A stretch of 10,785 nucleotides of DNA from positions 1-10,785 of the IMG/VR virus record IMGVR_UViG_3300029647_000054; one strand, written 5' to 3'. The notes under the pieces are model-generated. The model worked only from the letters and a program-made list of their open reading frames with translations, was not told the DNA's origin and ran no database searches. This DNA comes from a virus. Its lineage: Duplodnaviria > Heunggongvirae > Uroviricota > Caudoviricetes. The translations under genes were made by a program, and so were the position numbers. This document shows, piece by piece, positions 1 through 10,785 of the stretch (positions are counted from its first letter, which is position 1; every line of letters starts with the position of its first letter).

Positions 1-42
1 CAGTTGTTCAGGCTGGCGTGCGAATTGTAAACCAGAATGCCA

Positions 43-71
43 GGAAAAAACAAAACCCGCCGAAGCGGGTT
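43..71 (-). terminator. Rho-independent terminator at the 3' end of the hok transcript
   Basis: Inverted repeat 54-60 / 65-71 (AACCCGC / GCGGGTT) with 4-nt loop; on the minus strand the hairpin is followed by TTGTTTTTT (53-43); lies about 70 nt 3' of the hok stop. Confidence 0.55.
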
Positions 72-139
72 AAGTGCGGGTGCGTTGAGGATGCCTGACT
101 CATCAGAGGTGGCGAGGGATTTCTCCCTCGCCAGGTCTC

Positions 140-295
140 TTACTCCTCAGGTTCGTAAGCTGTGAAGACAGTGACCTCCGTCTGGCCGGTTCGGATTCGT
201 ACCTCGCAGAGGTCTTTCCTCGTTACCAGTGCCGTCACAATGACGGTAATACAGATGACGATCAGGGCGACTAACATCGCCTTTTGCTGCTTCAT
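140..295 (-). CDS. hok: Hok/Gef family type I toxin (51 aa, HokD/HokC-like small membrane toxin)
   Basis: In-frame internal ATG at 295 of the 70-aa track ORF; product MKQQKAMLVALIVICITVIVTALVTRKDLCEVRIRTGQTEVTVFTAYEPEE closely matches my recollection of HokD/HokC; SD AGGAG about 7 nt upstream; single TM helix. Confidence 0.85.
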   Translation of the reverse strand: MKQQKAMLVALIVICITVIVTALVTRKDLCEVRIRTGQTEVTVFTAYEPEE

Positions 296-352
296 AGCCT
301 GCTTCTCCTTGCCTTTCGGCGTGTAAGAGGCTAACCTACATGTGACTAGCAT
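140..352 (-). CDS. mok: Mok-like in-frame upstream reading frame that couples hok translation (70 aa)
   Basis: ATG at 352 in the same frame as hok, as recalled for chromosomal mokC/hokC pairs; existence as a separate regulatory frame is inferred from the hok/sok paradigm. Confidence 0.5.
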   Translation of the reverse strand: MLVTCRLASYTPKGKEKQAMKQQKAMLVALIVICITVIVTALVTRKDLCEVRIRTGQTEVTVFTAYEPEE

Positions 353-410
353 GAAATTGGCCTCAGATTAATGTTAAGCGTCCTGCAAGACGCATAATGT
401 TAACTGGGGC
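340..410 (+). ncRNA. sok: Putative Sok-like antisense RNA overlapping the mok start region (approximate)
   Basis: Inferred from hok/sok architecture only; candidate promoter TTGCCT (309-314) - 17 nt - TAACCT (332-337) on the plus strand; no clean terminator seen, ends not determined. Confidence 0.25.
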
Positions 411-510
411 TTTTCTCTGTCTGCCTTACGGTGGCATGCCCGAGGCAGACAGCCTCAAGCACCCGCAGCAATTCTACTTAACTCTCGCTTTACCGCAAAC
501 CGTTTTTACC

Positions 511-532
511 CGATATGGGAATTCCCATATCG
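511..532. repeat. Perfect 22-bp palindrome CGATATGGGAATTCCCATATCG
   Basis: Read directly: 11-nt arms exactly reverse-complementary with no spacer; not followed by a U-run on either strand. Confidence 0.8.
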
Positions 533-540
533 TAATGAAT

Positions 541-645
541 TCAGTTCCCTAGTCGATCCATCAAAAACACAACCAGGCAGTAAACACCCACAACAGCAAT
601 AACAGCCAGCGCACCTTCCATTGCCAGTGAGATATCATCCGACAC
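541..645 (-). CDS. Small hydrophobic peptide (34 aa, GTG start), single predicted TM helix
   Basis: Not in ORF track (too short). SD AAGGAGG 4 nt upstream of GTG at 645; product VSDDISLAMEGALAVIAVVGVYCLVVFLMDRLGN; start codon uncertain (alternative ATG at 621). Confidence 0.3.
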   Translation of the reverse strand: MSDDISLAMEGALAVIAVVGVYCLVVFLMDRLGN

Positions 646-680
646 ATTCCCTCCTTTGGTGTTAATCCCGGCGAACGCTT

Positions 681-764
681 TTACCCACACCGACAAATAA
701 CATATACTAAAAAAGCGATAGCCATAGCAACGCCTGTAATTGCAAATGCTTCAGGCCAGATCAT
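681..764 (-). CDS. Small hydrophobic peptide (27 aa), single predicted TM helix
   Basis: Not in ORF track. ATG at 764 overlaps the TGA of the upstream DUF551 gene (ATGA); strong SD GGAGG with 7-nt spacing; product MIWPEAFAITAVAMAIAFLVYVICRCG. Confidence 0.4.
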   Translation of the reverse strand: MIWPEAFAITGVAMAIAFLVYVICRCG

Positions 765-1438
765 TGGCGCACCTCCTGCGGCGGTTCTGGTAGCGGCATC
801 CAGTGGGTTACTTTCGATGCCGGTTCTTCCCCATCGTCAGTAACTGCCCACCATTTGTTTCTCGACCAATCGTAATACCCTTCGAAGGTATCGCACTCAG
901 TCCAGCCGTAAGACTTACCCCAACACCAAACATACTGTTTATCGTCCGGAATTCGCTCACTACAGCTTATCCAACCATCCGGAGTTACCGGAGAGCTGGT
1001 TGACGCTTCCGGGATTTTCCGAAAATTATTGGTTGACGAATCTTTATTTTCCCGAAAGTTTCCGGACTGAAGCATGGCTTCGCGGCAATCGTTCCAGCCT
1101 GTAGCGTATGCAGCCGCTTTGCTGCTGCCTTCAACTGGCGCATCCTGCCAATACATTTCTTCCGGCACTACCGGCGCTGGAGGGGCGGCGTAAATGCCCT
1201 CTATCACTAAATGTTTGCGCTCAAAATCATCTGGCTCTCGATGATATACGTAACTCCAATCACCAAGGTTATCATTGCGCCTGCAACGGAAACCTATCGG
1301 CTCTGCTTCCAGCGATGCCAGAGCAATTCGTGCCAGTTCTTCCGCTTCTTCTGCTGGCAGTACAACGTTGCTACCCGGTCCGTATGTTTCGCGCCACTGC
1401 TTGATTGTCAGCAGTCGCTCTTTGGTAATAGTGGTCAT
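761..1438 (-). CDS. DUF551 domain-containing phage protein (225 aa)
   Basis: C-terminal Trp-rich segment (DGWISCSERIPDDKQYVWCWGKSYGWTE...VTHWMPLPEPP) matches the DUF551 pattern I recall from E. coli prophage proteins; ATG start verified. Confidence 0.7.
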   Translation of the reverse strand: MTTITKERLLTIKQWRETYGPGSNVVLPAEEAEELARIALASLEAEPIGFRCRRNDNLGDWSYVYHREPDDFERKHLVIEGIYAAPPAPVVPEEMYWQDAPVEGSSKAAAYATGWNDCREAMLQSGNFRENKDSSTNNFRKIPEASTSSPVTPDGWISCSERIPDDKQYVWCWGKSYGWTECDTFEGYYDWSRNKWWAVTDDGEEPASKVTHWMPLPEPPQEVRQ

Positions 1439-1440
1439 AG

Positions 1441-1629
1441 CTATTTCACCTTAATCTCAACATTTCGCAGCTTTAGCTCTACTGGCAGGTCTGACTTTCC
1501 GGTTAATGCTAATGCGAGATTTTCTGGAGTAATGAGAGCAGTTATTGTTCTACCCATCGCAAGGCGGATAATCAGCCTTATCTCTTCGTCACAAGCGCCA
1601 GGGCGAATAATTGATATTTGTCCGTTCAC
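1441..1629 (-). CDS. Hypothetical small protein (62 aa, GTG start)
   Basis: GTG at 1629 one nt after the upstream TGA, preceded by SD AAAGGAGAG at 5-nt spacing; same geometry as the ATG at 2484. The track's ATG at 1671 would overlap the upstream gene by 41 nt and lacks an SD. Confidence 0.5.
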   Translation of the reverse strand: MNGQISIIRPGACDEEIRLIIRLAMGRTITALITPENLALALTGKSDLPVELKLRNVEIKVK

Positions 1630-1630
1630 C

Positions 1631-1663
1631 TCACTCTCCTTTAATGCGAATGCCAGCGGCGCG
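1631..1663. repeat. Module-junction repeat, copy 1 (about 33 bp, 31/33 identical to copy at 2486-2518)
   Basis: TCACTCTCCTTTAATGCGAATGCCAGCGGCGCG; encodes the shared C-terminal AGIRIKGE tail plus stop and the SD for the next gene. Confidence 0.8.
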
Positions 1664-2164
1664 GGAATCATTCCATCGCTTTACTTCTTCACGAATTACG
1701 TCAATGCATTCTTTCGAATCCATTAGGTAATCTTCATCAAAAAGACGTTCCTGTTCGTTTTCTATCGCAACAATGATTGCTTCAACTAACTTTTGTGCCT
1801 GAGAACCACTTTCTAACTCTGCAATGCGCTGTTTTACGGTATCAAGTTCAATCGATAATTTTTCCAACTGCTCTTTATGCTTCTTGTATTCCTGATATGC
1901 GTGCCAGGACTGACCTTTGCGCACACTATCAGTAATATCAGTAATCTGTTCTGGTGTTAGCGTAGTCAGTGGCTGTGCTGGGAAAATCAGCACTTTCCCG
2001 GAATCCCAATCAAAACCAGCGTGAATTGACTGAACCTCAACTGATGGTGTTGAACCGATGCGACCAGGCGAATGAACAACGATCGTTACATCCATATCTC
2101 GACGATGGCTGTGGTTGCTGGACAAAATACGATTCACCAACTCAGAAAATTTGGAAAATTTCAT
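1631..2164 (-). CDS. Hypothetical protein (177 aa) with coiled-coil C-terminus ending AGIRIKGE
   Basis: ATG at 2164 overlaps the upstream TGA (ATGA), SD AGAGGG at 7 nt; the track ORF's extra 43 N-terminal residues would overlap the upstream gene; last 8 residues identical to the Ea22-like protein. Confidence 0.6.
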
Positions 2165-2484
2165 GTTGATCCCTCTTTCTCTCCCCGGATAATTCTGTTG
2201 CACACATCCACACACTCGTCGCAGATGAAAACGGCGTCCCCAGCAATTAACTTTTTGACGGCGTACTGGGATTTGTTGCAGAAGCTGCAACAAAGTGTTC
2301 GCCTGACTGATAAGGATGGAGCGCCAGATGTCAGCCGCTCCATATCGTTCTTGCGACGCAATATCACACGGCTGAACTCAACCAGTTTCTCCGGGGATAT
2401 CTCCTCCTCCGTAGCGAGCGTCTCTAGTCGTTCGAGTATGTTGAAGGCTTTTTCCTGGGTAATAGCAGAATGCGATGTGGTCAT
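2161..2484 (-). CDS. Small protein with ClpX N-terminal zinc-binding-domain-like C4 zinc finger (107 aa)
   Basis: [38 protein letters not shown] aligns with ClpX N-terminus ([37 protein letters not shown], from memory) with identical CxxC-x18-CxxC spacing; ATG at 2484 with SD AAAGGAGAG. Confidence 0.75.
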
Positions 2485-2485
2485 C

Positions 2486-2518
2486 TCACTCTCCTTTGAT
2501 GCGAATGCCAGCGACGCG
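2486..2518. repeat. Module-junction repeat, copy 2
   Basis: TCACTCTCCTTTGATGCGAATGCCAGCGACGCG; same coding/SD content as copy 1. Confidence 0.8.
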
Positions 2519-3181
2519 TGGCACATTAACTTCCACGATGCGCACATTTGGTTTGTACATCTCAATCGCTGTCAGCCAGTCAGCGCCAGTCATGCGCTTT
2601 TCTGCATCGCCATTAGTCCACTTAACCGGTACACCAATAGCCTTCATCGCGATTTCTATTTCCCCGGCAATGGTGCTTTTTCCGCAACCAGTAAAACCAG
2701 ATACAACGACCAGAACTTCACCTTTGGCTGGTTTTATTTCCCGCGCTTCCAGTTCTGCTATGCGCTTACTTCCATCCGAGATAACACCTTCGTAATACTC
2801 ACGCTGCTCGTTGAGTTTTGATTTTGTCTCCTCAAGCTCAACGCGCAGCTTCCCTACCGTTAACGCAATATCCTCGTTCTCCTGGTCGCGGCGTTTGATG
2901 TATTGCTGGTTTCTTTCCCGTTCATCCAGCAGTGCCAAGACAGCAGTCGGATTGGCCTCTGCTATGAACTCAGCGTTTGCATAAGCCTGAGCATCTGTTT
3001 CAACCAGGCAGTTAACATGACATTCTGCAATCACGCCACCGGGTTCTCCTTTCCATTTTTGACAAACAAAAACTCCTGTTAAATTGCCGTGCTGGTTAAC
3101 AGATGTATGCCCTACGATGTAGCTTCCTTTAGTTGCTTTCTCTGCCTTTTCACGCAGTGCCTGATAGTTAATCTCGCTCAC
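2486..3181 (-). CDS. Ead/Ea22-like protein with C-terminal Walker A (P-loop) motif (231 aa, GTG start)
   Basis: N-terminal region with [20 protein letters not shown] motif typical of Ea22-like proteins as I recall them; central coiled coil; [10 protein letters not shown]-loop; GTG overlaps upstream TGA (GTGA) with SD GGAGGA at 6 nt. Confidence 0.7.
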
Positions 3182-3402
3182 TCTTCATCCTCCAAGTCGG
3201 CAACGGCGTCCATCACATCAGAACCGCGAATAACCTCAAAAGCACGGCAGGCCATTTGAAATACCAGTTGCTCTTGCGGGTGAGGAGACTCCCAATATTT
3301 GAAGCCTGGGCGATGCGTGTACCCCATCATTGAATAAAAATCACCAGCAAGCTTAATCGCGGCATCGACAAGCTCTCTGTTAGTCATTCTTTTTCCGCTC
3401 AC
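3178..3402 (-). CDS. Hypothetical small protein (74 aa, GTG start)
   Basis: GTG at 3402 overlaps the upstream TGA; SD AAGGAGG at 6 nt; no family recognised. Confidence 0.5.
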   Translation of the reverse strand: MSGKRMTNRELVDAAIKLAGDFYSMMGYTHRPGFKYWESPHPQEQLVFQMACRAFEVIRGSDVMDAVADLEDEE

Positions 3403-3749
3403 TGGTTGCCTCCTTTGCGAAGCTGGGCGGCTAACTCATCACATATGTGCGTCAAAGAACAAAGTTTGATTGATGGATGTTCGCGCATCATCTCTACCCC
3501 CTGCGCCCGCACTTCAGACAGGAAAGCATCGGTGGCTGGCATATTTCCTGTTGCCTTCATTGCCTCCAAAATAACCAGAACGCCATCTCGCCCAATCTCC
3601 TCGCAGATAACCTCGGTGCTGTCGCCAACAACATCGCAAAATGCCTGAACTGCTTTACGAGCCAGCGCATCTTCCGCCCTGTGAAACGCCTCGCGGTTGA
3701 AATTTTCATATCCCGTCATTGGACCGGCAATATAAACTCTGACCCTCAC
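3399..3749 (-). CDS. DUF4406-like (nucleoside 2-deoxyribosyltransferase-like fold) phage protein (116 aa, GTG start)
   Basis: N-terminal VYIAGPMTG motif characteristic of DUF4406 as I recall it; rest of protein did not match my memory of the family; GTG overlaps upstream TGA with SD AGGAGG at 7 nt. Confidence 0.55.
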   Translation of the reverse strand: MRVRVYIAGPMTGYENFNREAFHRAEDALARKAVQAFCDVVGDSTEVICEEIGRDGVLVILEAMKATGNMPATDAFLSEVRAQGVEMMREHPSIKLCSLTHICDELAAQLRKGGNQ

Positions 3750-4138
3750 TCCATCACCTCCTGAAAGTTTCCCCGATAGAACGCCAGCACACGCTGCATA
3801 ACTTCGCTCCTCCTGCTCTCACGACAAATTATGTTCTGCCGTCTGTTGTAACGACGTATTTCTCCGTCAGGTAACTTTCGAATCAGTGTCGGGTCAGCAG
3901 CCTTCTCCGGTGTCTTACGCCATACGCGATACGCCTGCTCTGATGGAAATACCCCGCAACCAGAGAGCCAGACATCACCACTGGCCGCAAGCGCACCAGA
4001 TAAACGACGAATAGCGGTCTTACTGACACCCGTTTTATCTGCCAGTTGTCGAAAAGTTTCTCGTCCGCTCAGGCGCACGAATTCCACAATGCGCGCCTTC
4101 ACTTCTTCCCGCTCTTCTGGTGTAAATACTTTTGCCAT
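3746..4138 (-). CDS. Putative HTH DNA-binding protein (130 aa)
   Basis: ATG at 4138 with SD GGAGG at 5 nt (track start at 4153 is TTG); helix-turn-helix-like segment FRQLADKTGVSKTAIRRLSG. Confidence 0.6.
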   Translation of the reverse strand: MAKVFTPEEREEVKARIVEFVRLSGRETFRQLADKTGVSKTAIRRLSGALAASGDVWLSGCGVFPSEQAYRVWRKTPEKAADPTLIRKLPDGEIRRYNRRQNIICRESRRSEVMQRVLAFYRGNFQEVME

Positions 4139-4153
4139 AAGCGCCTCCGGCAA

Positions 4154-4879
4154 TCACTTTTCCGATACAACACGGCGGGAAGAATCAGTAATCTGTCGAA
4201 CAATATCCCGGTGCTTGTTCAGCTCCCGCAGCGCGGCGCAGACTCGCTCCCACTTCTGAACCTGACCTTTTGCCCGGCGCAGCTCGCGGTTAGCCACATG
4301 CAGCGATGGTAAAATCAGACCATCCGGATGTTTTCTGGTGAACGACGGCTGTGACTGCACTGTGACCGCCACACTTTCCGTTTTTATTTCTTCCTGTGTT
4401 TCTGCTTCCCGGACAGGTAACGCAACACCTGCTGGCTGAGGAAAGGCTTTACCGTCGGTTTCCGCTACGGATGCAGCTTCCGGCTCTGCCGGTAAATCAG
4501 CGCCCGGTATGCAGTAACGAAATTTACCGCCCTGATTCACGCGAATCAGACGCCCTTTGCTGATTGCCATGGCCAGCGATGAATTCGCCCGGCGGGAGGT
4601 AATCCCGAACATCAGTGCCAGCTCATCCGCCGTTTGTGGGCCATGTTGTTCAATCGCCTCAGTCAGCATTTGCGCTGTCACTTTCGGTACCGGTGACACC
4701 GGTTCACTTTCACCAGCCTGAATCAGCCGCCACATCGAACCCTTGTTATCCGCTTCACCGCGGCGCTTCAGTTTCCACAGTTCGTTGACCGCATCTTCAC
4801 GGCTGATTCCAAGGCGGGACGCCACTACCTGTGAAGAGGCTCTTTTCAGTGCTTTCAGTGCGTCAAATACGGTTTCCAT
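4154..4879 (-). CDS. Hypothetical phage protein with two winged-helix-like segments (241 aa)
   Basis: ATG at 4879 with SD GGAGG at 8-nt spacing (track start at 4897 is TTG and contains that SD); two internal segments resembling winged-helix DNA-binding folds. Confidence 0.65.
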
Positions 4880-4912
4880 TAAAATTTCCTCCGACAAAAT
4901 CGTTTCTCAGAT

Positions 4913-5575
4913 TCAAATAAAACCAGCTGCCTTCCGGCGTTCGTATTCCTGTTTCAGCCGTTCAATTGGCGTTGGCCCTTGCGGGTGTTTCGCCCCTTCC
5001 AGTTGTCGTCGCACTGGCGGAACACTCATCCCGTTACCAACATGCTTTGCCCATTTCGTCAGTTGCCGTTCCGCAAGTCGTTTTAACTCACCCTGCGTCA
5101 TCTGGCGCTCAATCCCTCTGGTACGCATTTCGAGGCAGATGTGGTACAGCACAGGCTGTGGCCACGGGTATTTATCACTCCCGTCGTATCGCCAGGATTC
5201 ATTGCGCCAGCGCCGGTACTCTTCCATCACGGCATCCACCGTAAGACCAAATGGATTTGCCCCACTCTCCGAAATCAGCGCAACAAACTCAGCCAGGTCC
5301 GGGGGCCACGTTTCACCCGCCCGGCAGCGGTCCATGCACTGACGGCAGACCAGCCGGATTTGCTGTTCAGTCATCGTGCCAATCTGGGCAATCCAGAGCT
5401 TCGAAGGTGCGGCCCCGTTCTTCTGAGTCCAGCGGTTCGAATACACCTCCCCCATAAGCTCCCACAGCTTCCAGGCCATTTCCGTTGCTGATAAATCCGT
5501 TGTCTCGTTCCCACTGTTCGCGTGCTGCCCGGATTTCCTGAACTGCCCGTGATGCCGTGCCACCTGATGCTGCAT
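4913..5575 (-). CDS. Replication protein P-like (lambda P family helicase loader), up to 220 aa
   Basis: Similarity to lambda P as recalled (W-x-A...TMxEQ, FxP-P--F-A, YPW motifs); ATG at 5575 has SD AAGGGGG at 6 nt; start uncertain (alternatives 5479, 5455); overlaps O-like frame. Confidence 0.7.
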   Translation of the reverse strand: MQHQVARHHGQFRKSGQHANSGNETTDLSATEMAWKLWELMGEVYSNRWTQKNGAAPSKLWIAQIGTMTEQQIRLVCRQCMDRCRAGETWPPDLAEFVALISESGANPFGLTVDAVMEEYRRWRNESWRYDGSDKYPWPQPVLYHICLEMRTRGIERQMTQGELKRLAERQLTKWAKHVGNGMSVPPVRRQLEGAKHPQGPTPIERLKQEYERRKAAGFI

Positions 5576-6404
5576 GGCTTACCCCCTTGCTGACTGGTTT
5601 TACCTGTGTCCTGACGTGCTGCACGTGGCGGGCAAATTTCTGCTCCCACTGAACCTGTGTGAAAACCTTCCCCTCCGCCATCCAGTAATCCCGGAATGCG
5701 GCAAGCTCTGCAGGTGTAAATTCCGGCTCAGGCAGAGCCATACCCCACACTGCTGCCCGTTGTCGAAAATCCGACGACGGCTGCCAGACAGTAGTCATCG
5801 AAAATTTCCCGATCGGTTCGCTCAGGCCGTCCAGGTATTCAGGTTCGGCTGTCTGCAACGGCGCACCATGCGACTCACCGGTTGGAGCACTCTCGCGCAT
5901 GCGCGCGTTATGTGTGGGGTTTAATTCTGTATCTGTATCTTTATCTGTCGTGACTTGTCGTGACAGATGCGTGACACGTCGTGACTCATCGTGACAATCA
6001 GCATCATATTTCCGCAGCTTTTCGCGCTCCCGCTGCGCTCTCTTGCGCTCTGCCGGGGATTTTGCCGTTTGCGAAACGTTACCATTGTCCTCTTTCAGCA
6101 CCTGACGTTTTTCCCATCCGGAAATAAGGTCACCATCCAGAACCCGCCCCTGCATTGCATGCAAAATTGAATCAATTACGTCTTCCGTCACATCAAGCGC
6201 ACTTGCTAAATCTTCCGTCGTGACATCAATGTGACCACGTAGTGACACGCCGTGACATGTCGTGACATTTCGTGACGCACTCACCAGAAGGTGGATATAC
6301 ACCGCCATCACTGTTGCGATTGGCTGTCCTGAGACCCTGGCAATGGTTCGCCATTTGGGATCATTTGGCATGTCATGCCACAATCTGAGCCAGGCATTAG
6401 CCAT
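5367..6404 (-). CDS. Replication initiator / replisome organizer (lambda O-like) with internal iterons (345 aa)
   Basis: N-terminus MANAWLRLWHDMPNDPKWR resembles phage replisome-organizer N-domains; iteron clusters inside the coding region; ATG at 6404 with SD GAGG at 5 nt (track start 6410 is GTG). Confidence 0.75.
   Translation of the reverse strand: MANAWLRLWHDMPNDPKWRTIARVSGQPIATVMAVYIHLLVSASRNVTTCHGVSLRGHIDVTTEDLASALDVTEDVIDSILHAMQGRVLDGDLISGWEKRQVLKEDNGNVSQTAKSPAERKRAQREREKLRKYDADCHDESRRVTHLSRQVTTDKDTDTELNPTHNARMRESAPTGESHGAPLQTAEPEYLDGLSEPIGKFSMTTVWQPSSDFRQRAAVWGMALPEPEFTPAELAAFRDYWMAEGKVFTQVQWEQKFARHVQHVRTQVKPVSKGVSHAASGGTASRAVQEIRAAREQWERDNGFISNGNGLEAVGAYGGGVFEPLDSEERGRTFEALDCPDWHDD
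5948..5995. repeat. Iteron cluster 1: five direct repeats of (T/G)CGTGAC at 10-11 bp spacing, preceded by a 6-bp periodic (TATCTG-like) tract
   Basis: CGTGAC at 5949, 5959, 5970, 5980, 5990; adjacent tract 5924-5947; read directly. Confidence 0.7.
6220..6276. repeat. Iteron cluster 2: six direct repeats of GTGAC at 10-11 bp spacing
   Basis: GTGAC at 6220, 6231, 6242, 6252, 6262, 6272; read directly; about 270 bp from cluster 1, both inside the O-like gene. Confidence 0.7.
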
Positions 6405-6472
6405 ACTCACCTCATCTGATACCGAACTTTACCCTCGAACATCCGGAAGAAATCCGGCATGAATATTGTTGG

Positions 6473-6898
6473 TCAATGCACGACAACAGCATTACCAGGC
6501 TGACCACCACTGTTAGTCAGGGTGCCCCAGGCGATCGCCGCTGCGACAAAATCATCCACATCTTTCACCAGCCGATCCCTCCGTTCGACGATCTCACGGT
6601 AATATTCAGAGCTGTGACTGCGCATACGGGCCACCAGCAAAGGCGGCATCGCCTTTTCGATCGCCGGTAACAGAGCCTGCATTTTTTCAACAGCATCAGG
6701 GGTGTCTTTATCCAGCCAACGGAAAATTTTCTGGGTATTACGGGCCAGGGCTTCCGGATGGCTGTCGTCATACAGTTCCGGGAACGTCATTCCCAGCTCG
6801 AAATACGCTTTGGTAATTTTCGCAGCCGGTACTTTTTCGCCGTCCGGATGCGCCCAGACATTCATCGCCATGCGGATGTGTTCATGCTTGATTTTCAT
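6473..6898 (-). CDS. YdaT-like protein in the cII position (141 aa)
   Basis: Starts MKIKHEHI and ends VVVH as I recall for Rac YdaT; ATG overlaps the Cro-like gene's TGA (ATGA); family assignment from memory only. Confidence 0.55.
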   Translation of the reverse strand: MKIKHEHIRMAMNVWAHPDGEKVPAAKITKAYFELGMTFPELYDDSHPEALARNTQKIFRWLDKDTPDAVEKMQALLPAIEKAMPPLLVARMRSHSSEYYREIVERRDRLVKDVDDFVAAAIAWGTLTNSGGQPGNAVVVH

Positions 6899-7158
6899 GA
6901 ATCAACTCCCAGCGCGGGTTGTGTGTTAGCCTGATAGTCAACAGGTATGCCATCGGTTGGGTTGGGGTAAGTACTGCTATCAATCTCGTGCGGGGTCACT
7001 ACCCACCCTGTTGCTTCACACCAGCGTAAAACTTTCCCCCCCGTAAGTTTCGCCCGTCCAGTAATAACATGGCTTACCATCCCTTGGGTTACCCCAACAA
7101 TTTCAGCAAAATCTTTCTGGGTTATACGGGAATGATGCAAATATTCTCCAAGATTCAT
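6895..7158 (-). CDS. Cro-like HTH transcriptional regulator (YdaS/Cro family, 87 aa)
   Basis: HTH segment QKDFAEIVGVTQGMVSHVITG; divergent from the CI-like repressor across an operator-containing intergenic region; SD GAGGTG 4 nt before ATG. Confidence 0.75.
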   Translation of the reverse strand: MNLGEYLHHSRITQKDFAEIVGVTQGMVSHVITGRAKLTGGKVLRWCEATGWVVTPHEIDSSTYPNPTDGIPVDYQANTQPALGVDS

Positions 7159-7188
7159 TGTTCACCTCATGTTATGTGACCATGAATA

Positions 7189-7230
7189 TTAATAGCATTG
7201 TTATTTTTAAAAGTAAATAGCACTGCTATT
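7189..7230. promoter_or_regulatory. OR-like region: two 15-bp palindromic operators plus a PR-like promoter for the Cro-like gene
   Basis: Operators AATAGCATTGTTATT (7191-7205) and AATAGCACTGCTATT (7216-7230); on the minus strand TTTACT (-35, 7217-7212), 17-nt spacer, TATTAA (-10, 7194-7189). Confidence 0.65.
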
Positions 7231-7265
7231 TCAAAGAGATTAATAATCTTATTAGAATTGAAGGT

Positions 7266-7766
7266 ATGAAAAGAAAACCCCTGTCAGAGATCGACCTGCA
7301 AGCCGCCCAGAGACTGAAAGAAATCTGGACGACGAAAAAAACTCAACTTGGGTTAACCCAAGAGCGTGCGGCAGAAATTCTGGGTTTTTCGACACAAGGG
7401 GCAGTAAGCCATTATCTAAATGGTCAGACACCTTTAAATCTAGAGGCTGTTATCAAGTTCGCTGGGTTGCTACAAGTTCCGCCTGAGTCAATTAGACCAG
7501 ATATGGCAGACTTGTTACGAATTGTAAGGATGTACCCCCAAGAACTGCAGCAGGATAATGTTGTCGCTTTACCCGCAGAGATGGAACAATCGGAAAACGA
7601 ACTTCCGTTTAATATAGAACCTATAGAGCGAGATTTGATCCAGACGTTCAGGGCTTTCCCAAAAGAAGACAAAGAGAAAATGCTTAAGGAAATGAAGGAG
7701 AAAAAAGAATCAATTGAAGAAACCGTTGCGCGGTGGCTAGAGGCGCAAAAAGGTCTTCGCGCCTAA
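7266..7766 (+). CDS. paaR: CI-like HTH repressor, regulator of the three-component TA module (PaaR-like, 166 aa); no S24 peptidase domain
   Basis: N-terminal HTH (LGLTQERAAEILGFSTQGAVSHYLNG); divergent from Cro-like gene; directly upstream of antitoxin-toxin pair; C-terminus too short and lacks a LexA-like autocleavage domain. Confidence 0.75.
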   Translation: MKRKPLSEIDLQAAQRLKEIWTTKKTQLGLTQERAAEILGFSTQGAVSHYLNGQTPLNLEAVIKFAGLLQVPPESIRPDMADLLRIVRMYPQELQQDNVVALPAEMEQSENELPFNIEPIERDLIQTFRAFPKEDKEKMLKEMKEKKESIEETVARWLEAQKGLRA

Positions 7767-7783
7767 TCTGAGGAGGTTAGAAC

Positions 7784-7975
7784 ATGAGTACAGTCCTTTC
7801 CCCGATAATTTCAGAATTTGAAACAATCGAACAAGAAAACAGCTATAACGAATGGTTACGCACCAAAGTGGCAGCAAGCCTCGCAGACCCCCGTCCTGCA
7901 ATTCCGCATGACGAAGTAATGGCTGAAATGGAAAACCTTATTGCGCAAATAGCTTCGACGAACAGGAGTGAGTAA
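7784..7975 (+). CDS. paaA: PaaA-like antitoxin (63 aa)
   Basis: 63-aa acidic protein immediately upstream of and overlapping (TAATG) the ParE toxin gene; matches my recollection of the PaaA2 antitoxin from E. coli O157 paaR2-paaA2-parE2; SD GAGGAGG at 8 nt. Confidence 0.7.
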   Translation: MSTVLSPIISEFETIEQENSYNEWLRTKVAASLADPRPAIPHDEVMAEMENLIAQIASTNRSE

Positions 7976-8265
7976 TGCTGCCCATTTTATGGCTACCTTC
8001 TGCGCGTGATGATTTGCGTCAGATCGTAGCCTATATTGCCAAGGAAAACCCTCCCGCTGCACGTAGACTAAAAATACGCATTGAAACATCAGTTTTGTCA
8101 CTTACTGAACACCCTTACCTGTATCCACCAAGCGAAAGAGCCCTAGGCCTTCGTGAGATAGTGACCCATCCTAACTACATAATACTTTACCGAGTAACAG
8201 CATCTAACATCGAGATCGTAAATGTAGTTCACTCACGAAGGCAGTATCCAAACAAAAGCTGTTAA
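7975..8265 (+). CDS. parE: ParE/RelE-superfamily toxin (ParE-like, 96 aa)
   Basis: Typical ParE sequence features (LPILWLPSARDDLRQIVAYI...EHPYLYPPSE...REIV); start overlaps antitoxin stop by 1 nt. Confidence 0.8.
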   Translation: MLPILWLPSARDDLRQIVAYIAKENPPAARRLKIRIETSVLSLTEHPYLYPPSERALGLREIVTHPNYIILYRVTASNIEIVNVVHSRRQYPNKSC

Positions 8266-8280
8266 TCATTCCTACCAACA

Positions 8281-8304
8281 ACCACCTTCGGGTGGTTTTT
8301 TTTT
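8281..8304 (+). terminator. Rho-independent terminator after parE
   Basis: ACCACC-TTCG-GGTGGT hairpin followed by a run of nine T. Confidence 0.8.
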
Positions 8305-8320
8305 CTTACCTCCAAAAAAC

Positions 8321-8362
8321 AATAGCATTACTATTTACAGAATAAAATAGCAGTGCTATTGT
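8321..8362 (+). promoter_or_regulatory. OL-like region: two 15-bp palindromic operators plus a PL-like promoter driving the dicB-type operon
   Basis: Operators AATAGCATTACTATT (8321-8335) and AATAGCAGTGCTATT (8346-8360); TTTACA (-35, 8334-8339), 17-nt spacer, TATTGT (-10, 8357-8362); mirrors the OR architecture. Confidence 0.65.
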
Positions 8363-8538
8363 TTATTCATCACCCACCCTCCCCACAGAATGCAGGGCAA
8401 TACTTCGAGTTACCCGGCAGTGGTCAGGGGTTAAGTAGCCAGCCCGAGGCGTATGAACATGACGGCGGGAACACTTTGTATAACAGCGCAGCAGGTTTTT
8501 GTTCCGCTACCCCGGCGTTAAGGGGAAATGAGGTCAGC

Positions 8539-8691
8539 ATGGATACTATCGAGCTTGGCAACAGCGAATCTCTGGTATGCGGCGTGTTTCCCAACCAGGA
8601 CGGCACGTTTACCGCGATGACGTATACCAGAAGCAAAACGTTTAAAACGGAAGCTGGCGCGCGTCGCTGGTTAGCAAGAAGCTCTGACTGA
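8539..8691 (+). CDS. Small protein (50 aa), first gene of the PL-type operon; possibly YdfA/YdaF (DUF1391)-like
   Basis: ATG with SD GAGG at 5 nt; in frame with the track ORF whose GTG start lies inside the operator; family assignment is positional only. Confidence 0.4.
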   Translation: MDTIELGNSESLVCGVFPNQDGTFTAMTYTRSKTFKTEAGARRWLARSSD

Positions 8692-8789
8692 TGAAGGTTA
8701 GTAATTAAAGAGTTCTCCACAGGCGAAGTGGAATACGTTCGCAGGACACGGGTAAGCATTCGGCATGCTCTTTAACAATCTGGGTATTC

Positions 8790-9236
8790 CTAACCACAAA
8801 GGAATCGCATCAATTTGGATTTTGCAGACAGTTTCTCTTGTTGTTCTACGGAGATTCCTATTTTGATCTGGGTTTTTAAGATTGCGATATCTTTAAGCGA
8901 CGACCAAATATTATCATCTGTTTTTTCCAGGAGCTTTAACTGCATTTTCAATTCCGAATCGGAATATTTTTCTGCATCATCATAAAGCTGCAGATATTCT
9001 GCGGATTTTCTCATTGCGTTACCTGACTTTTGTCCGAATCCGTAAATCGTTTGAACGGTTGCTATCACAACAATGAGAACTCCAGAAACTTCAGGAATAA
9101 ATCCACCAATGACAGATGAACCGAGGATAATACTCACCACTGAGAAAAGTTTATCGAGACGACCAGTCGCTACAGAGAATAGTTGTTCAAGAAAATAACC
9201 ATATAAAACCCTGTCAAGAATATCATCCCGGTCCAT
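8790..9236 (-). CDS. AT-rich two-TM membrane protein with coiled-coil-like C-terminus (148 aa); candidate superinfection-exclusion (sieB-position) protein
   Basis: Opposite strand to the surrounding operon; SD AGGTG at 8 nt; hydrophobic segments LFSVVSIILGSSVIGGFI and VLIVVIATVQTIYGF; clearly lower GC than neighbours; function inferred from position. Confidence 0.55.
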   Translation of the reverse strand: MDRDDILDRVLYGYFLEQLFSVATGRLDKLFSVVSIILGSSVIGGFIPEVSGVLIVVIATVQTIYGFGQKSGNAMRKSAEYLQLYDDAEKYSDSELKMQLKLLEKTDDNIWSSLKDIAILKTQIKIGISVEQQEKLSAKSKLMRFLCG

Positions 9237-9295
9237 ATATCATCACCTGCTTGTTTGATTGTTGCTGTTCCCCCTCTCCTCTGAAGGAGCTGGAG

Positions 9296-9484
9296 ATGGT
9301 TTTGGTCGAATGTTTTTCTCAGGTATATGTTTCCTGGTATTCGGAATGTCCGCCCTGTCCGCAGGCTTACCAGTACCTGAACAATTCTTTTGAACCACCA
9401 TATAAAACACCTTCCTGTTGTTGGGGATATCCAGATTATACAGATTTCCTGTTATTGGGGAATGACGGAAACCACCTCGCCTGA
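9296..9484 (+). CDS. Small Cys-rich protein (62 aa), hypothetical
   Basis: ATG with SD GAAGGAG at 6 nt; six Cys including CPPCP and SCCW; preferred over the overlapping low-complexity minus-strand ORF. Confidence 0.4.
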   Translation: MVLVECFSQVYVSWYSECPPCPQAYQYLNNSFEPPYKTPSCCWGYPDYTDFLLLGNDGNHLA

Positions 9485-9699
9485 CGTGGTTAAAAGCAGG
9501 CACACAACACGAAAGCGCACGGCGAGATTCCTTTGCATATAAGGCTTGTCGTTAAATTTCTTCGACCGTGCACTTCCGGTTGTGGCAGTCCGCGAAATGG
9601 CGCGGCGGTAAGTATGGCTGGGGCTTCCTCCATTGCTCCAGAAAATGCACCGGGTCGTCAGGTTGACCATACGCTTAAGTGACAGCCCCGCCACAATAC

Positions 9700-9757
9700 C
9701 CATGTGTAGTATTTGGTGGCATCAGTTCTACTCCGTGACTGCTCTGCCACCCTTTTT
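9700..9757 (+). ncRNA. dicF: DicF-like small RNA (ftsZ-targeting sRNA family) with intrinsic terminator
   Basis: TTTGGTGGCATCAGTTCTACTCCGTGACTGCTCTGCCACCCTTTTT closely matches my recollection of K-12 DicF, with compensatory stem changes; sits directly upstream of dicB as in Qin. Confidence 0.7.
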
Positions 9758-9761
9758 AAAG

Positions 9762-9922
9762 TGAATTTTGTGATGCGGTGAATGCGGCTATGCGCACGCG
9801 GAACAGTTAAAACCGTAAAGTGGTCTTTTACGGGGCGTAACGGGCATCCTTCTGTATTCCGGCGTTAATTGTTAACTGGTTAACGTCACCTGGAGGCACC
9901 AGGCACCGCATCACAAAATTCA
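9762..9922 (+). repeat. Long-range 19-nt perfect inverted repeat (TGAATTTTGTGATGCGGTG at 9762-9780 and its reverse complement at 9904-9922) bracketing 123 nt between dicF and dicB
   Basis: Read directly; would form a 19-bp RNA duplex in the operon transcript. Confidence 0.7.
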
Positions 9923-9939
9923 TTGTTGAGGACGCGATA

Positions 9940-10128
9940 ATGGAAACGTTATTACCAAACGTTAATACGTCTGAAGGTTGTTTTGATATTGGTGTTCTGC
10001 TCAGTAACCGGGAGTTTACGGAAGATGCCATTAAGATGAGAAAATATGAACCTTATCTTCTCAATGATAATTCCATACTTTCCAGAATTGCCCTTCTTGA
10101 ACTTGGTATTATCGGAGAACAGCAGTGA
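9940..10128 (+). CDS. dicB: Cell division inhibitor DicB (62 aa)
   Basis: N-terminal 35 residues (METLLPNVNTSEGCFDIGV...FTEDAI) closely match K-12 DicB as recalled; C-terminus diverges; SD GAGGA at 7 nt. Confidence 0.85.
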   Translation: METLLPNVNTSEGCFDIGVLLSNREFTEDAIKMRKYEPYLLNDNSILSRIALLELGIIGEQQ

Positions 10129-10313
10129 CTTCAGCATTTGCACTGGTGATGACCGTTTTTCTTATAACGGGTGAGCCACAAAATGTGATTACCGGAATTT
10201 ATGACAGTAAGTCATCCTGCATTCAGGTAAGGGACGAACAAAAAATCCCCGGTGAATGCCTCCCGTTAAAAAAAGTATCGCTGAACCTGAATAACGAAAT
10301 ACCGGCTGGATAA
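10125..10313 (+). CDS. ydfD: YdfD-like small membrane/lysis protein (62 aa, GTG start)
   Basis: GTG overlaps the dicB stop (GTGA), SD GGAGAA at 5 nt; N-terminal hydrophobic helix; assignment by position in the dicB operon and size. Confidence 0.5.
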   Translation: MTSAFALVMTVFLITGEPQNVITGIYDSKSSCIQVRDEQKIPGECLPLKKVSLNLNNEIPAG

Positions 10314-10408
10314 CCCGCCAGCCATATTAACACCATACCAACGGATTAAAAATGCCAGCAATGGCAGGGATTCGTTCACCCTGAAATCTGTAATGAGGTT
10401 AAAACAAA

Positions 10409-10785
10409 ATGAGTAAAGTCTTTATTTGCGCCGCTATTCCTGACGAACTGGCAACAAGGGAAGAAGGCGCTGTGGCTGTAGCCACAGCCATTGAAGCTGG
10501 CGACGAACGCCGTGCTCGAGCAAAATTTCACTGGCAATTCCTGGAACATTATCCGGCTGCTCAGGACTGCGCTTATAAATTTATTGTCTGCGAGGATAAA
10601 CCCGGCATACCCCGCCCTGCCCTCGATTCATGGGATGCTGAATATATGCAGGAAAACCGCTGGGATGAGGAGTCTGCTTCCTTTGCCCCGGTTGAGACTG
10701 AATCAGATCCGATGAACGTCACTTTTGACAAGCTGGCCCCTGAAGTACAGAACGCTGTCATGGTTAAGTTCGACACATGTGAAAA
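10409..10785 (+). CDS. Partial CDS (runs off the window end, at least 125 aa), YdfE-position hypothetical protein
   Basis: ATG at 10409 with SD GAGG; open frame to the window end; not in the track because no stop is reached. Confidence 0.55.
   Translation, partial: MSKVFICAAIPDELATREEGAVAVATAIEAGDERRARAKFHWQFLEHYPAAQDCAYKFIVCEDKPGIPRPALDSWDAEYMQENRWDEESASFAPVETESDPMNVTFDKLAPEVQNAVMVKFDTCE

Follow-up and report, generated by a model that had tools for sequence, protein, structure and literature searches.

Why does a phage gene carry two clusters of short, evenly spaced DNA repeats within its coding sequence, and do these clusters serve the replication of the phage? The question is raised by a stretch of Caudoviricetes DNA of 10,785 nt (IMG/VR record IMGVR_UViG_3300029647_000054, positions 1 to 10,785; hereafter the window), which is an Escherichia coli lambdoid prophage. 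A first-pass annotation had proposed an origin of replication within a gene resembling lambda O. From comparison with related loci we conclude, at a probability of roughly 0.8, that the two repeat arrays are iterons bound by the N-terminal part of the initiator encoded by the same gene, and that they form, together with an adjoining A/T-rich tract, the replication origin of the prophage.

Two phased arrays within an initiator gene

Both clusters are located in a minus-strand open reading frame (ORF) at 5367-6410. The ORF, its translation and the annotation of a 99.9 % identical E. coli locus by the Prokaryotic Genome Annotation Pipeline (PGAP) define a replication initiator gene of 345 amino acids (aa) at 5367..6404 on the minus strand, with the PGAP start in the E. 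coli chromosome at the ATG at 6404. Array A (6215..6276, minus strand) consists of the six units GTCACGAAAT, GTCACGACAT, GTCACGGCGT, GTCACTACGTG, GTCACATTGAT and GTCACGACGG, array B (5945..5995, minus strand) of the five units GTCACGATGA, GTCACGACGT, GTCACGCATCT, GTCACGACAA and GTCACGACAG. On the plus strand, GTGAC starts at 5950, 5960, 5971, 5981 and 5991 in array B, with successive spacings of 10, 11, 10 and 10 bp; all five cores are preceded by C and four of the five by TC. In array A the starts are 6220, 6231, 6242, 6252, 6262 and 6272, with spacings of 11, 11, 10, 10 and 10 bp. The unit is a direct repeat of 10-11 bp with a core of 6-8 bp, and all eleven cores, GTCACG on the coding strand, are arranged head-to-tail in one orientation across both arrays, with a mean spacing of about 10.3-10.4 bp in each. 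Array A starts 281 nt before array B on the coding strand, and 229 nt separate the last A core from the first B core. The clusters with 10-11-bp spacing described in the first-pass annotation were borne out when the positions were recounted: the window presents up to 6 cores per 60 bp and ten spacings of 10-11 bp, values that were never approached in 2000 dinucleotide-preserving shuffles of the window (maxima of 3 cores per 60 bp and 1 such spacing). Two further cores were found in the DUF1627 gene at 4351-4366 (plus-strand GTGAC at 4351 and 4362). They are 11 bp apart and oriented as in the arrays, reading GTCACA and not GTCACG, and may be due to chance or present a weak extra initiator site.

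The location inside the coding sequence was described correctly; the affiliation of the gene to lambda O was not, the protein being an analogue and not a homologue. A Pfam scan of the full initiator at E ≤ 0.01 revealed only the DnaT-like single-stranded DNA (ssDNA)-binding domain PF17948 (5607..5804, minus strand; E 7.5e-17; 61 bits against a cut-off of 25), located in the C-terminal half, thus the initiator is not a lambda O homologue. The lambda O family (Phage_rep_O, PF04492) gave no match among the members of the N-terminal domain family even at E ≤ 10. Foldseek matched the C-terminal domain to the DnaT structures 4ou6 and 6aeq with a template modelling score (TM) of about 0.9 and 56-58 % identity. 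The similarity does not extend to full-length DnaT: NCBIfam NF002770 was matched with 93.4 bits against a cut-off of 201, and only within profile positions 82-155. In an AlphaFold2 model built with 36 homologues, aa 1-100 form a confident N-terminal domain, aa 117-142 a basic helix and aa 142-186 a disordered linker rich in Asp and Lys; a C-terminal three-helix domain follows. The N-terminal part is a winged-helix domain encoded at 6105..6404 (minus strand), followed by the basic helix region (aa 114-142; 5979..6065, minus strand), a candidate for the DNA-reading element. Sequence similarity of the N-terminal domain to PF09681 (Phage_rep_org_N, the type of SPP1 G38P) was marginal. The NCBI name of the protein family is 'phage replisome organizer', as for SPP1 G38P, and in near-identical E. 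coli genomes the initiator is labelled either with this name or as 'DnaT-like ssDNA-binding domain-containing protein'; it also matches PHROG 1408/3729, 'replication initiation protein'. Among the E. coli database entries of the protein, the majority are marked 'partial'. Assemblies evidently are prone to end within the gene, probably because parts of it are common to several co-resident prophages.

Array A codes for aa 43-64, the loop between two helices of the winged-helix domain, and array B for aa 137-154, where the basic helix ends and the disordered linker begins. Both are structurally permissive segments of low confidence in the AlphaFold2 prediction, and the loop of array A had low predicted local distance difference test (pLDDT) values in both models. 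Since the unit measures 10-11 nt, the core falls into each of the three reading frames and is translated as V-T, x-H or S. The repeated VT(T/H) motif of the first-pass annotation is one of these readings and does not describe the others.

Conservation of the arrays and switching of their motif

Homologues of the N-terminal part were gathered from phage records and from one genome per species, yielding 79 usable loci. An array at the B position was present in 67 of them. Both arrays with the same 5-mer were found in 44 genes belonging to several bacterial classes, array B only in 23, array A only in seven and neither array in five; the same classifier detected both arrays in none of 1580 codon-shuffled controls. 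At two positions of the gene, about nt 129-160 and nt 388-430, GTCAC arrays are shared by the Escherichia phages Evi and 204576, Pseudomonas phage 5399 and Aeromonas phage pAEv1818, and the Ralstonia phage Hennie has GCAACG arrays at these positions. The comparison with related phages suggested by the first-pass annotation therefore confirmed the layout in Escherichia, Pseudomonas and Aeromonas phages, and what had been called unusual, the presence of two clusters, is the norm for relatives of this initiator. In the whole 40-kb genome of phage Evi, GTCAC clusters occurred inside the initiator gene only; a third, oriR-like site was not found. The distance between the first units of both arrays varies from 190 to 350 nt among the relatives, a range in which helical phasing is confounded by coding constraint and shared ancestry.

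The arrays are kept from Enterobacterales to Burkholderiales and Xanthomonadales with different motifs: the classes GTCACG, CGAACG(C), GTAACG, GCAACG, GGAACG and GTGACG share the common core NNN-ACG. The class switches between lineages, and the two arrays of one gene always belong to one class. A Serratia metagenome-assembled genome (L132) and a Pantoea locus (L142) possess CTACG(TA) repeats at CDS nt 327-370 and 650-690, the second cluster lying about 320 nt further downstream, in genes for longer proteins (396-434 aa), perhaps a variant form of the two-array arrangement. The initiator module was detected in 1262 of 5426 complete E. coli genomes, about a quarter, in up to 6 places per genome, among them O157:H7 prophages, and in phages of Pseudomonas, Aeromonas, Ralstonia and many other Proteobacteria. 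Plasmids using the module as a replicon were considered, and the matches were uninformative, being prophage-bearing large plasmids, misfiled chromosomes or circularised phage genomes. The 50.9-kb circular Pseudomonas aeruginosa 'plasmids' CP137943.1 and CP124671.1 in PLSDB prove to be whole genomes of temperate phages, which encode integrase, terminase and tail proteins and have the initiator beside a DnaB-like helicase gene; the PLSDB gene table lists no initiator coding sequence for them.

Repeats in a coding sequence may be a by-product, either of selection for a VT/H/S peptide or of neutral slippage in a tandem repeat. The copy number indeed varies by steps of 21 bp, which equal two units or 7 codons and keep the reading frame; the window arrays each hold one extra 21-bp block compared with most relatives, and close relatives have (A,B) unit counts of (6,5), (6,4) and (6,6). 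The encoded loops and linkers tolerate variation, which would suit such an origin of the repeats. The codon alignment of 15 diverged GTCACG-class genes, from Enterobacterales to Bordetella, Acidovorax, Chromobacterium and Gilvimarinus, speaks against it. The entropy of third codon positions was 0.16 bit in the cores versus 1.32 bit outside (Mann-Whitney p = 8e-7); the cores were invariant, whereas the spacers, the peptide and the flanking synonymous sites varied. Core starts fall in all three codon frames. Frozen synonymous sites together with cores in three frames indicate a constraint on the DNA and not on the protein, which accommodates the signal. Furthermore, the 10-11-nt unit is not a multiple of three and gives different amino acids in the three frames, and the conservation from Enterobacterales to Burkholderiales and Xanthomonadales includes motif switches in both arrays together. 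The by-product explanation is effectively refuted by these data. The bipartite origin with iterons inside the initiator gene that the first-pass annotation had considered gains strong support from the comparison, with both arrays kept, their motifs switched jointly and synonymous sites frozen.

The motif class is accompanied by residues of the initiator itself. Within the basic helix, residues 120-125 (R-K-R-A-Q-R) are encoded at 6030-6047 of the window. R120 is invariant in all assigned motif classes. At residues 121 and 124, the GTCACG class has K and Q, respectively, in 26 of 27 genes at each position; the GTAACG class has V at 121 and Y, F, H or W at 124 (8 of 8 genes), and the CGAACG class A, S or G at 121 and W, Y, H or F at 124 (18 of 18 genes). 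This association holds across different winged-helix subfamilies. The possibility that class-specific residues are a DNA-level artefact of the overlapping iteron was rejected, because the codons of residues 121 and 124 vary synonymously, which places the selection on the protein. The repeat thus co-varies with its initiator through motif class and residues 121/124, as is characteristic of iterons, with physical linkage as a caveat (see below).

This co-variation bears on the question of which protein binds the arrays. For regulation or segregation, they could be occupied by a neighbour (YdaT-like or cro-like), by a host factor or by a centromere binder of the partition type. Two clusters of head-to-tail 10-12-bp repeats would also suit plasmid centromeres such as parC of R1, bound by ParR, and tubC, bound by TubR, and the third helix of the initiator's winged-helix domain is acidic. 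Against another binding protein, the class of the motif follows residues of the initiator, the arrays stay with the N-terminal module in phages with differing neighbour genes, they are situated at the domain boundary of the initiator beside an A/T-rich tract as in lambda and SPP1, and the window contains no partition genes according to the Pfam scan and the PGAP annotation. We consider a foreign binding protein improbable and the initiator the likely ligand.

The A/T-rich tract and the function of the proposed origin

Directly after the last unit of array B follows an A/T- and purine-rich tract (5920..5944, minus strand; coding strand ATAAAGATACAGATACAGAATTAAA) that codes for Asp/Lys/Thr repeats and is a probable DNA unwinding element. 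Only array B has such a tract. The GC minimum of the region 5300-6600, 32.5 % at 5920-5959, contains it, and the 6-bp periodic TATCTG-like sequence noticed earlier beside the first cluster is present as TATCTG/TATCTT at 5926-5948. In every motif class the tract lies right after the last B unit, as (GATAAA)n, (GATACA)n or (GAGAA)n. Averaged over 67 loci, the stretch of 30 nt past array B is 79 % purine and 66 % A+T, compared with a gene background of 57 % and 42 %. In the aligned GTCACG-class genes the tract core AGATAAAGATA is invariant, and the purine-rich A/T run extends beyond it. The locus therefore displays the generic composition of an iteron origin, at least three direct repeats in helical phase adjoining an A/T-rich tract, in the order known from lambda: array B (5945-5995) ends the N-terminal part and is followed by the tract (5920-5944) and the disordered linker.

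The tract also coincides with a boundary of homology. Megablast identity breaks off at about 5923-5946, and E. coli relatives with a DUF1376 (YdaU-type) domain are 96 % identical in the C-terminal half up to about 5945. This DUF1376 variant keeps the A/T tract (E. coli TW08637, L168, 2100-2180, minus strand of the locus) and, immediately upstream of the tract, has repeats of its own, TGTTCAAACA, of which two are direct and one is inverted. Judged from these alignments, the tract is the recombination joint between a module of N-terminal domain and origin and a C-terminal module. With its single cluster, the DUF1376 version resembles a second type of origin, attached to the same P-interaction module. 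Lambdoid O genes behave likewise: the N-terminal domain and the iterons are swapped as a unit and the C-terminal domain stays with its helicase-loading partner. Here the partner is a lambda-P-like gene, an analogue of helicase loaders (4913..5374, minus strand; Pfam PF06992 Phage_lambda_P, E 1e-15; PGAP 'replication protein P'), which is located directly downstream and overlaps with its start the initiator stop by 8 nt. Other phages have different partners: the Pseudomonas and Ralstonia phages a DnaB-like helicase, and the Aeromonas phage a short gene that carries the annotation 'replicative helicase'. Beyond the tract, a GC-rich perfect palindrome (CGCGCATGCGCGCG, 5894..5907, no strand assigned) was rejected as a conserved part of the origin, as the DUF1376 variant shares this segment without the palindrome.

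Transferred to the life cycle of the prophage, this architecture suggests the following sequence of events. After induction, rightward-type transcription would proceed from the cro-like gene through ydaT, the initiator gene and the P-like gene. One initiator molecule may bind per 10-11-bp unit on one face of the helix, so that a short row of protein forms on each array. On array B, this row would end directly at the A/T-rich tract and help to melt it, and the DnaT-like C-terminal domain and the P-like protein would recruit the host DnaB helicase. Array A lies about 230-260 bp upstream; it would be bound by the same initiator and probably loop to array B, stabilising or tuning the complex. All steps past binding are modelled on the architecture and on lambda and SPP1.

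The role of array A deserves separate consideration. In Xanthomonadales-type relatives (L149, L154 and L151) it resides in another loop of the winged-helix domain, at codons of about 30-40 versus 43-55. In L151 (Lysobacter sp.; CDS nt 75-126 and 393-430) and L148 (CDS nt 74-90) it is inverted relative to array B, as A is the reverse complement of B (TGCGTCAC vs GTGACGCA); in L151 it comprises six units with a spacing of 9-10 bp. The alternative of a duplicated array raised in the first-pass annotation does not apply in the sense of a recent duplication, and we argue from the sequence class that always matches B, from the shifted loop and from the inversion in L151 and L148 that array A is not a leftover duplication. 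Its retention while place and orientation change fits a site communicating with array B through space. Alternatively, array B and the tract alone may constitute the origin, and array A may be a separate control element of the same initiator, either an autoregulatory roadblock or a titration or handcuffing site. The A/T- and purine-rich tract after array B only, the 23 of 79 relatives with array B and no detectable array A, and a position and orientation of array A that vary by lineage would suit an auxiliary site. In lambda, two iterons beside the A/T-rich region are enough for unwinding and in vitro replication (PMC7466680). Against such a separation, array A with its matching motif is retained in 44 of 79 relatives of several bacterial classes, even when moved to the other loop, and restraint of the copy number meets no obvious need at a lytic-phase phage origin. 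A purely regulatory array A is possible and, on balance, doubtful. With array B and the tract as core and array A as auxiliary or regulatory site, this is a serious variant overlapping the iteron origin proposed here and not a true alternative to it.

The opposite extension is that both arrays are obligatory, about 25 helical turns apart and looped by the initiator to melt the polypurine unwinding element, and that specificity resides in a two-residue code (121 and 124) of the basic helix and not in the winged-helix domain. We offer it tentatively, as less likely than not; the 23 of 79 relatives lacking a detectable array A speak against an obligatory role. If it is true, origin specificity would be predictable and re-engineerable from sequence alone.

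Several observations weigh against the assignment of the arrays and the tract as an iteron origin. No array B was detectable in 12 of the 79 relatives, so either the detection or the architecture is not universal. The tract is short, 25 bp with about one-third G+C. The N-terminal domain has no usable family in Pfam or NCBIfam and no significant Pfam match. The third helix is usually the recognition helix of winged-helix domains; since it is acidic here, according to the sequence and the AlphaFold2 helix map, the DNA-reading element is uncertain. The coding region of the basic helix lies so near to array B, 10-60 nt upstream, that the tracking of residues and motif could partly reflect physical linkage. 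DnaA boxes (TTATCCACA, at most one mismatch) were present four times in the window versus 2.5 expected and not at all in 5900-6300; host DnaA boxes are frequent, but optional in iteron-type origins. Finally, a description of the origin of this initiator family was not found in the literature, most subscription journals being outside reach, and a paper on the replication region of Stx phages mentions neither DnaT nor iterons (PMC8044961).

Among known systems, lambda ori is similar in having direct repeats followed by an A/T-rich tract and a P-like gene downstream. It differs in the initiator, which is no O homologue here and has a DnaT-like C-terminal domain, and in its single cluster of larger, wider-spaced iterons, compared with units of 10-11 bp in two arrays about 260 bp apart. 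The lambda iteron measures about 19 bp and has internal dyad symmetry. Lambda ori contains 4 iterons and that of Stx phages 6, and in both the origin lies inside gene O at the boundary of N- and C-terminal domains, as in the window (PMC7466680). SPP1 oriL within gene 38 likewise combines iterons ('AB boxes') and an A/T-rich unwinding element in the gene of its own initiator G38P, which binds two separate repeat regions (PMC5737612, PMC6316719). The second region, oriR, is about 13 kb away and outside the gene, whereas both arrays of the prophage are found within 350 bp inside the gene. The best reading is that the prophage locus would function as an origin of the lambda ori/SPP1 oriL type with a different architecture. 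Two repeat sets lying apart have their closest precedents in P4 ori/crr and in the second iteron sets of P1 and F. For P4, Flensburg and Calendar in 1987 and Ziegelin et al. in 1993 are said to have described a bipartite origin of ori and crr, with the same short repeat at two cis sites, both bound by the initiator. These sites are about 4.5 kb apart and flank the gene of the alpha protein, a primase-helicase; two separated repeat sites are thus common to both systems, which differ in distance and have unrelated initiators. The plasmids P1 (incC/incA) and F (incB/incC) have two iteron sets, one at the origin beside the unwinding element and one distant, that interact by looping or handcuffing. 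Two arrays of the same initiator-binding repeat are shared with the prophage. The plasmid arrays differ in placement, iteron size and initiator family: they flank the rep gene and restrain the copy number, their iterons are of about 19 bp and their initiators belong to the Rep_3 family. The staphylococcal RepA_N plasmids pSK41 and pTZ2162 (PDB 4pta) resemble the system at the level of a generic winged-helix structure; they differ as Gram-positive plasmid replicons with a single central repeat region and initiators of no detectable sequence similarity.

Implications and prophage setting

The analysis maps a probable origin for a replication module carried by about a quarter of the complete E. 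coli genomes. Co-resident prophages of one iteron class could cross-activate each other or compete for the initiator, a matter of relevance to how virulence prophages are induced and spread. The naturally occurring motif classes, with their matching residue changes, form a series ready for studies of how initiator-origin specificity evolves and offer orthogonal initiator/origin pairs for engineering, in an architecture that is conserved, widespread and experimentally tractable. The arrays also illustrate how a coding sequence accommodates a dense DNA signal that is read in three frames.

Upstream of the initiator gene, the window contains a YdaT-like gene (6473-6898, minus strand), a cro-like helix-turn-helix gene (6895-7158, minus strand) and a cI/DicA-like repressor gene (7266-7766, plus strand). 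A scan of 5300-7400 for promoters and terminators yielded matches at chance level only; the sole promoter-like match in the arrays was weak (9 of 12 positions) and composed of the repeat itself. Rfam and tRNA scans had no match in the origin region. Further genes of the window are DUF1627, DUF977, Ead/Ea22, a hok/sok module and dicF-dicB. The hok/sok module comprises a hok-type toxin ORF (140-352, minus strand), annotated hokD at this site in a near-identical genome, and a complete sok antisense RNA at 290-464 (minus strand; Rfam RF01794, 117.6 bits). The small RNA DicF at 9701-9752 (plus strand; Rfam RF00039, 62 bits) is followed by dicB at 9940-10128 (plus strand); together they are a cell-division-inhibition module of the Qin/Kim type in the leftward operon of the prophage.

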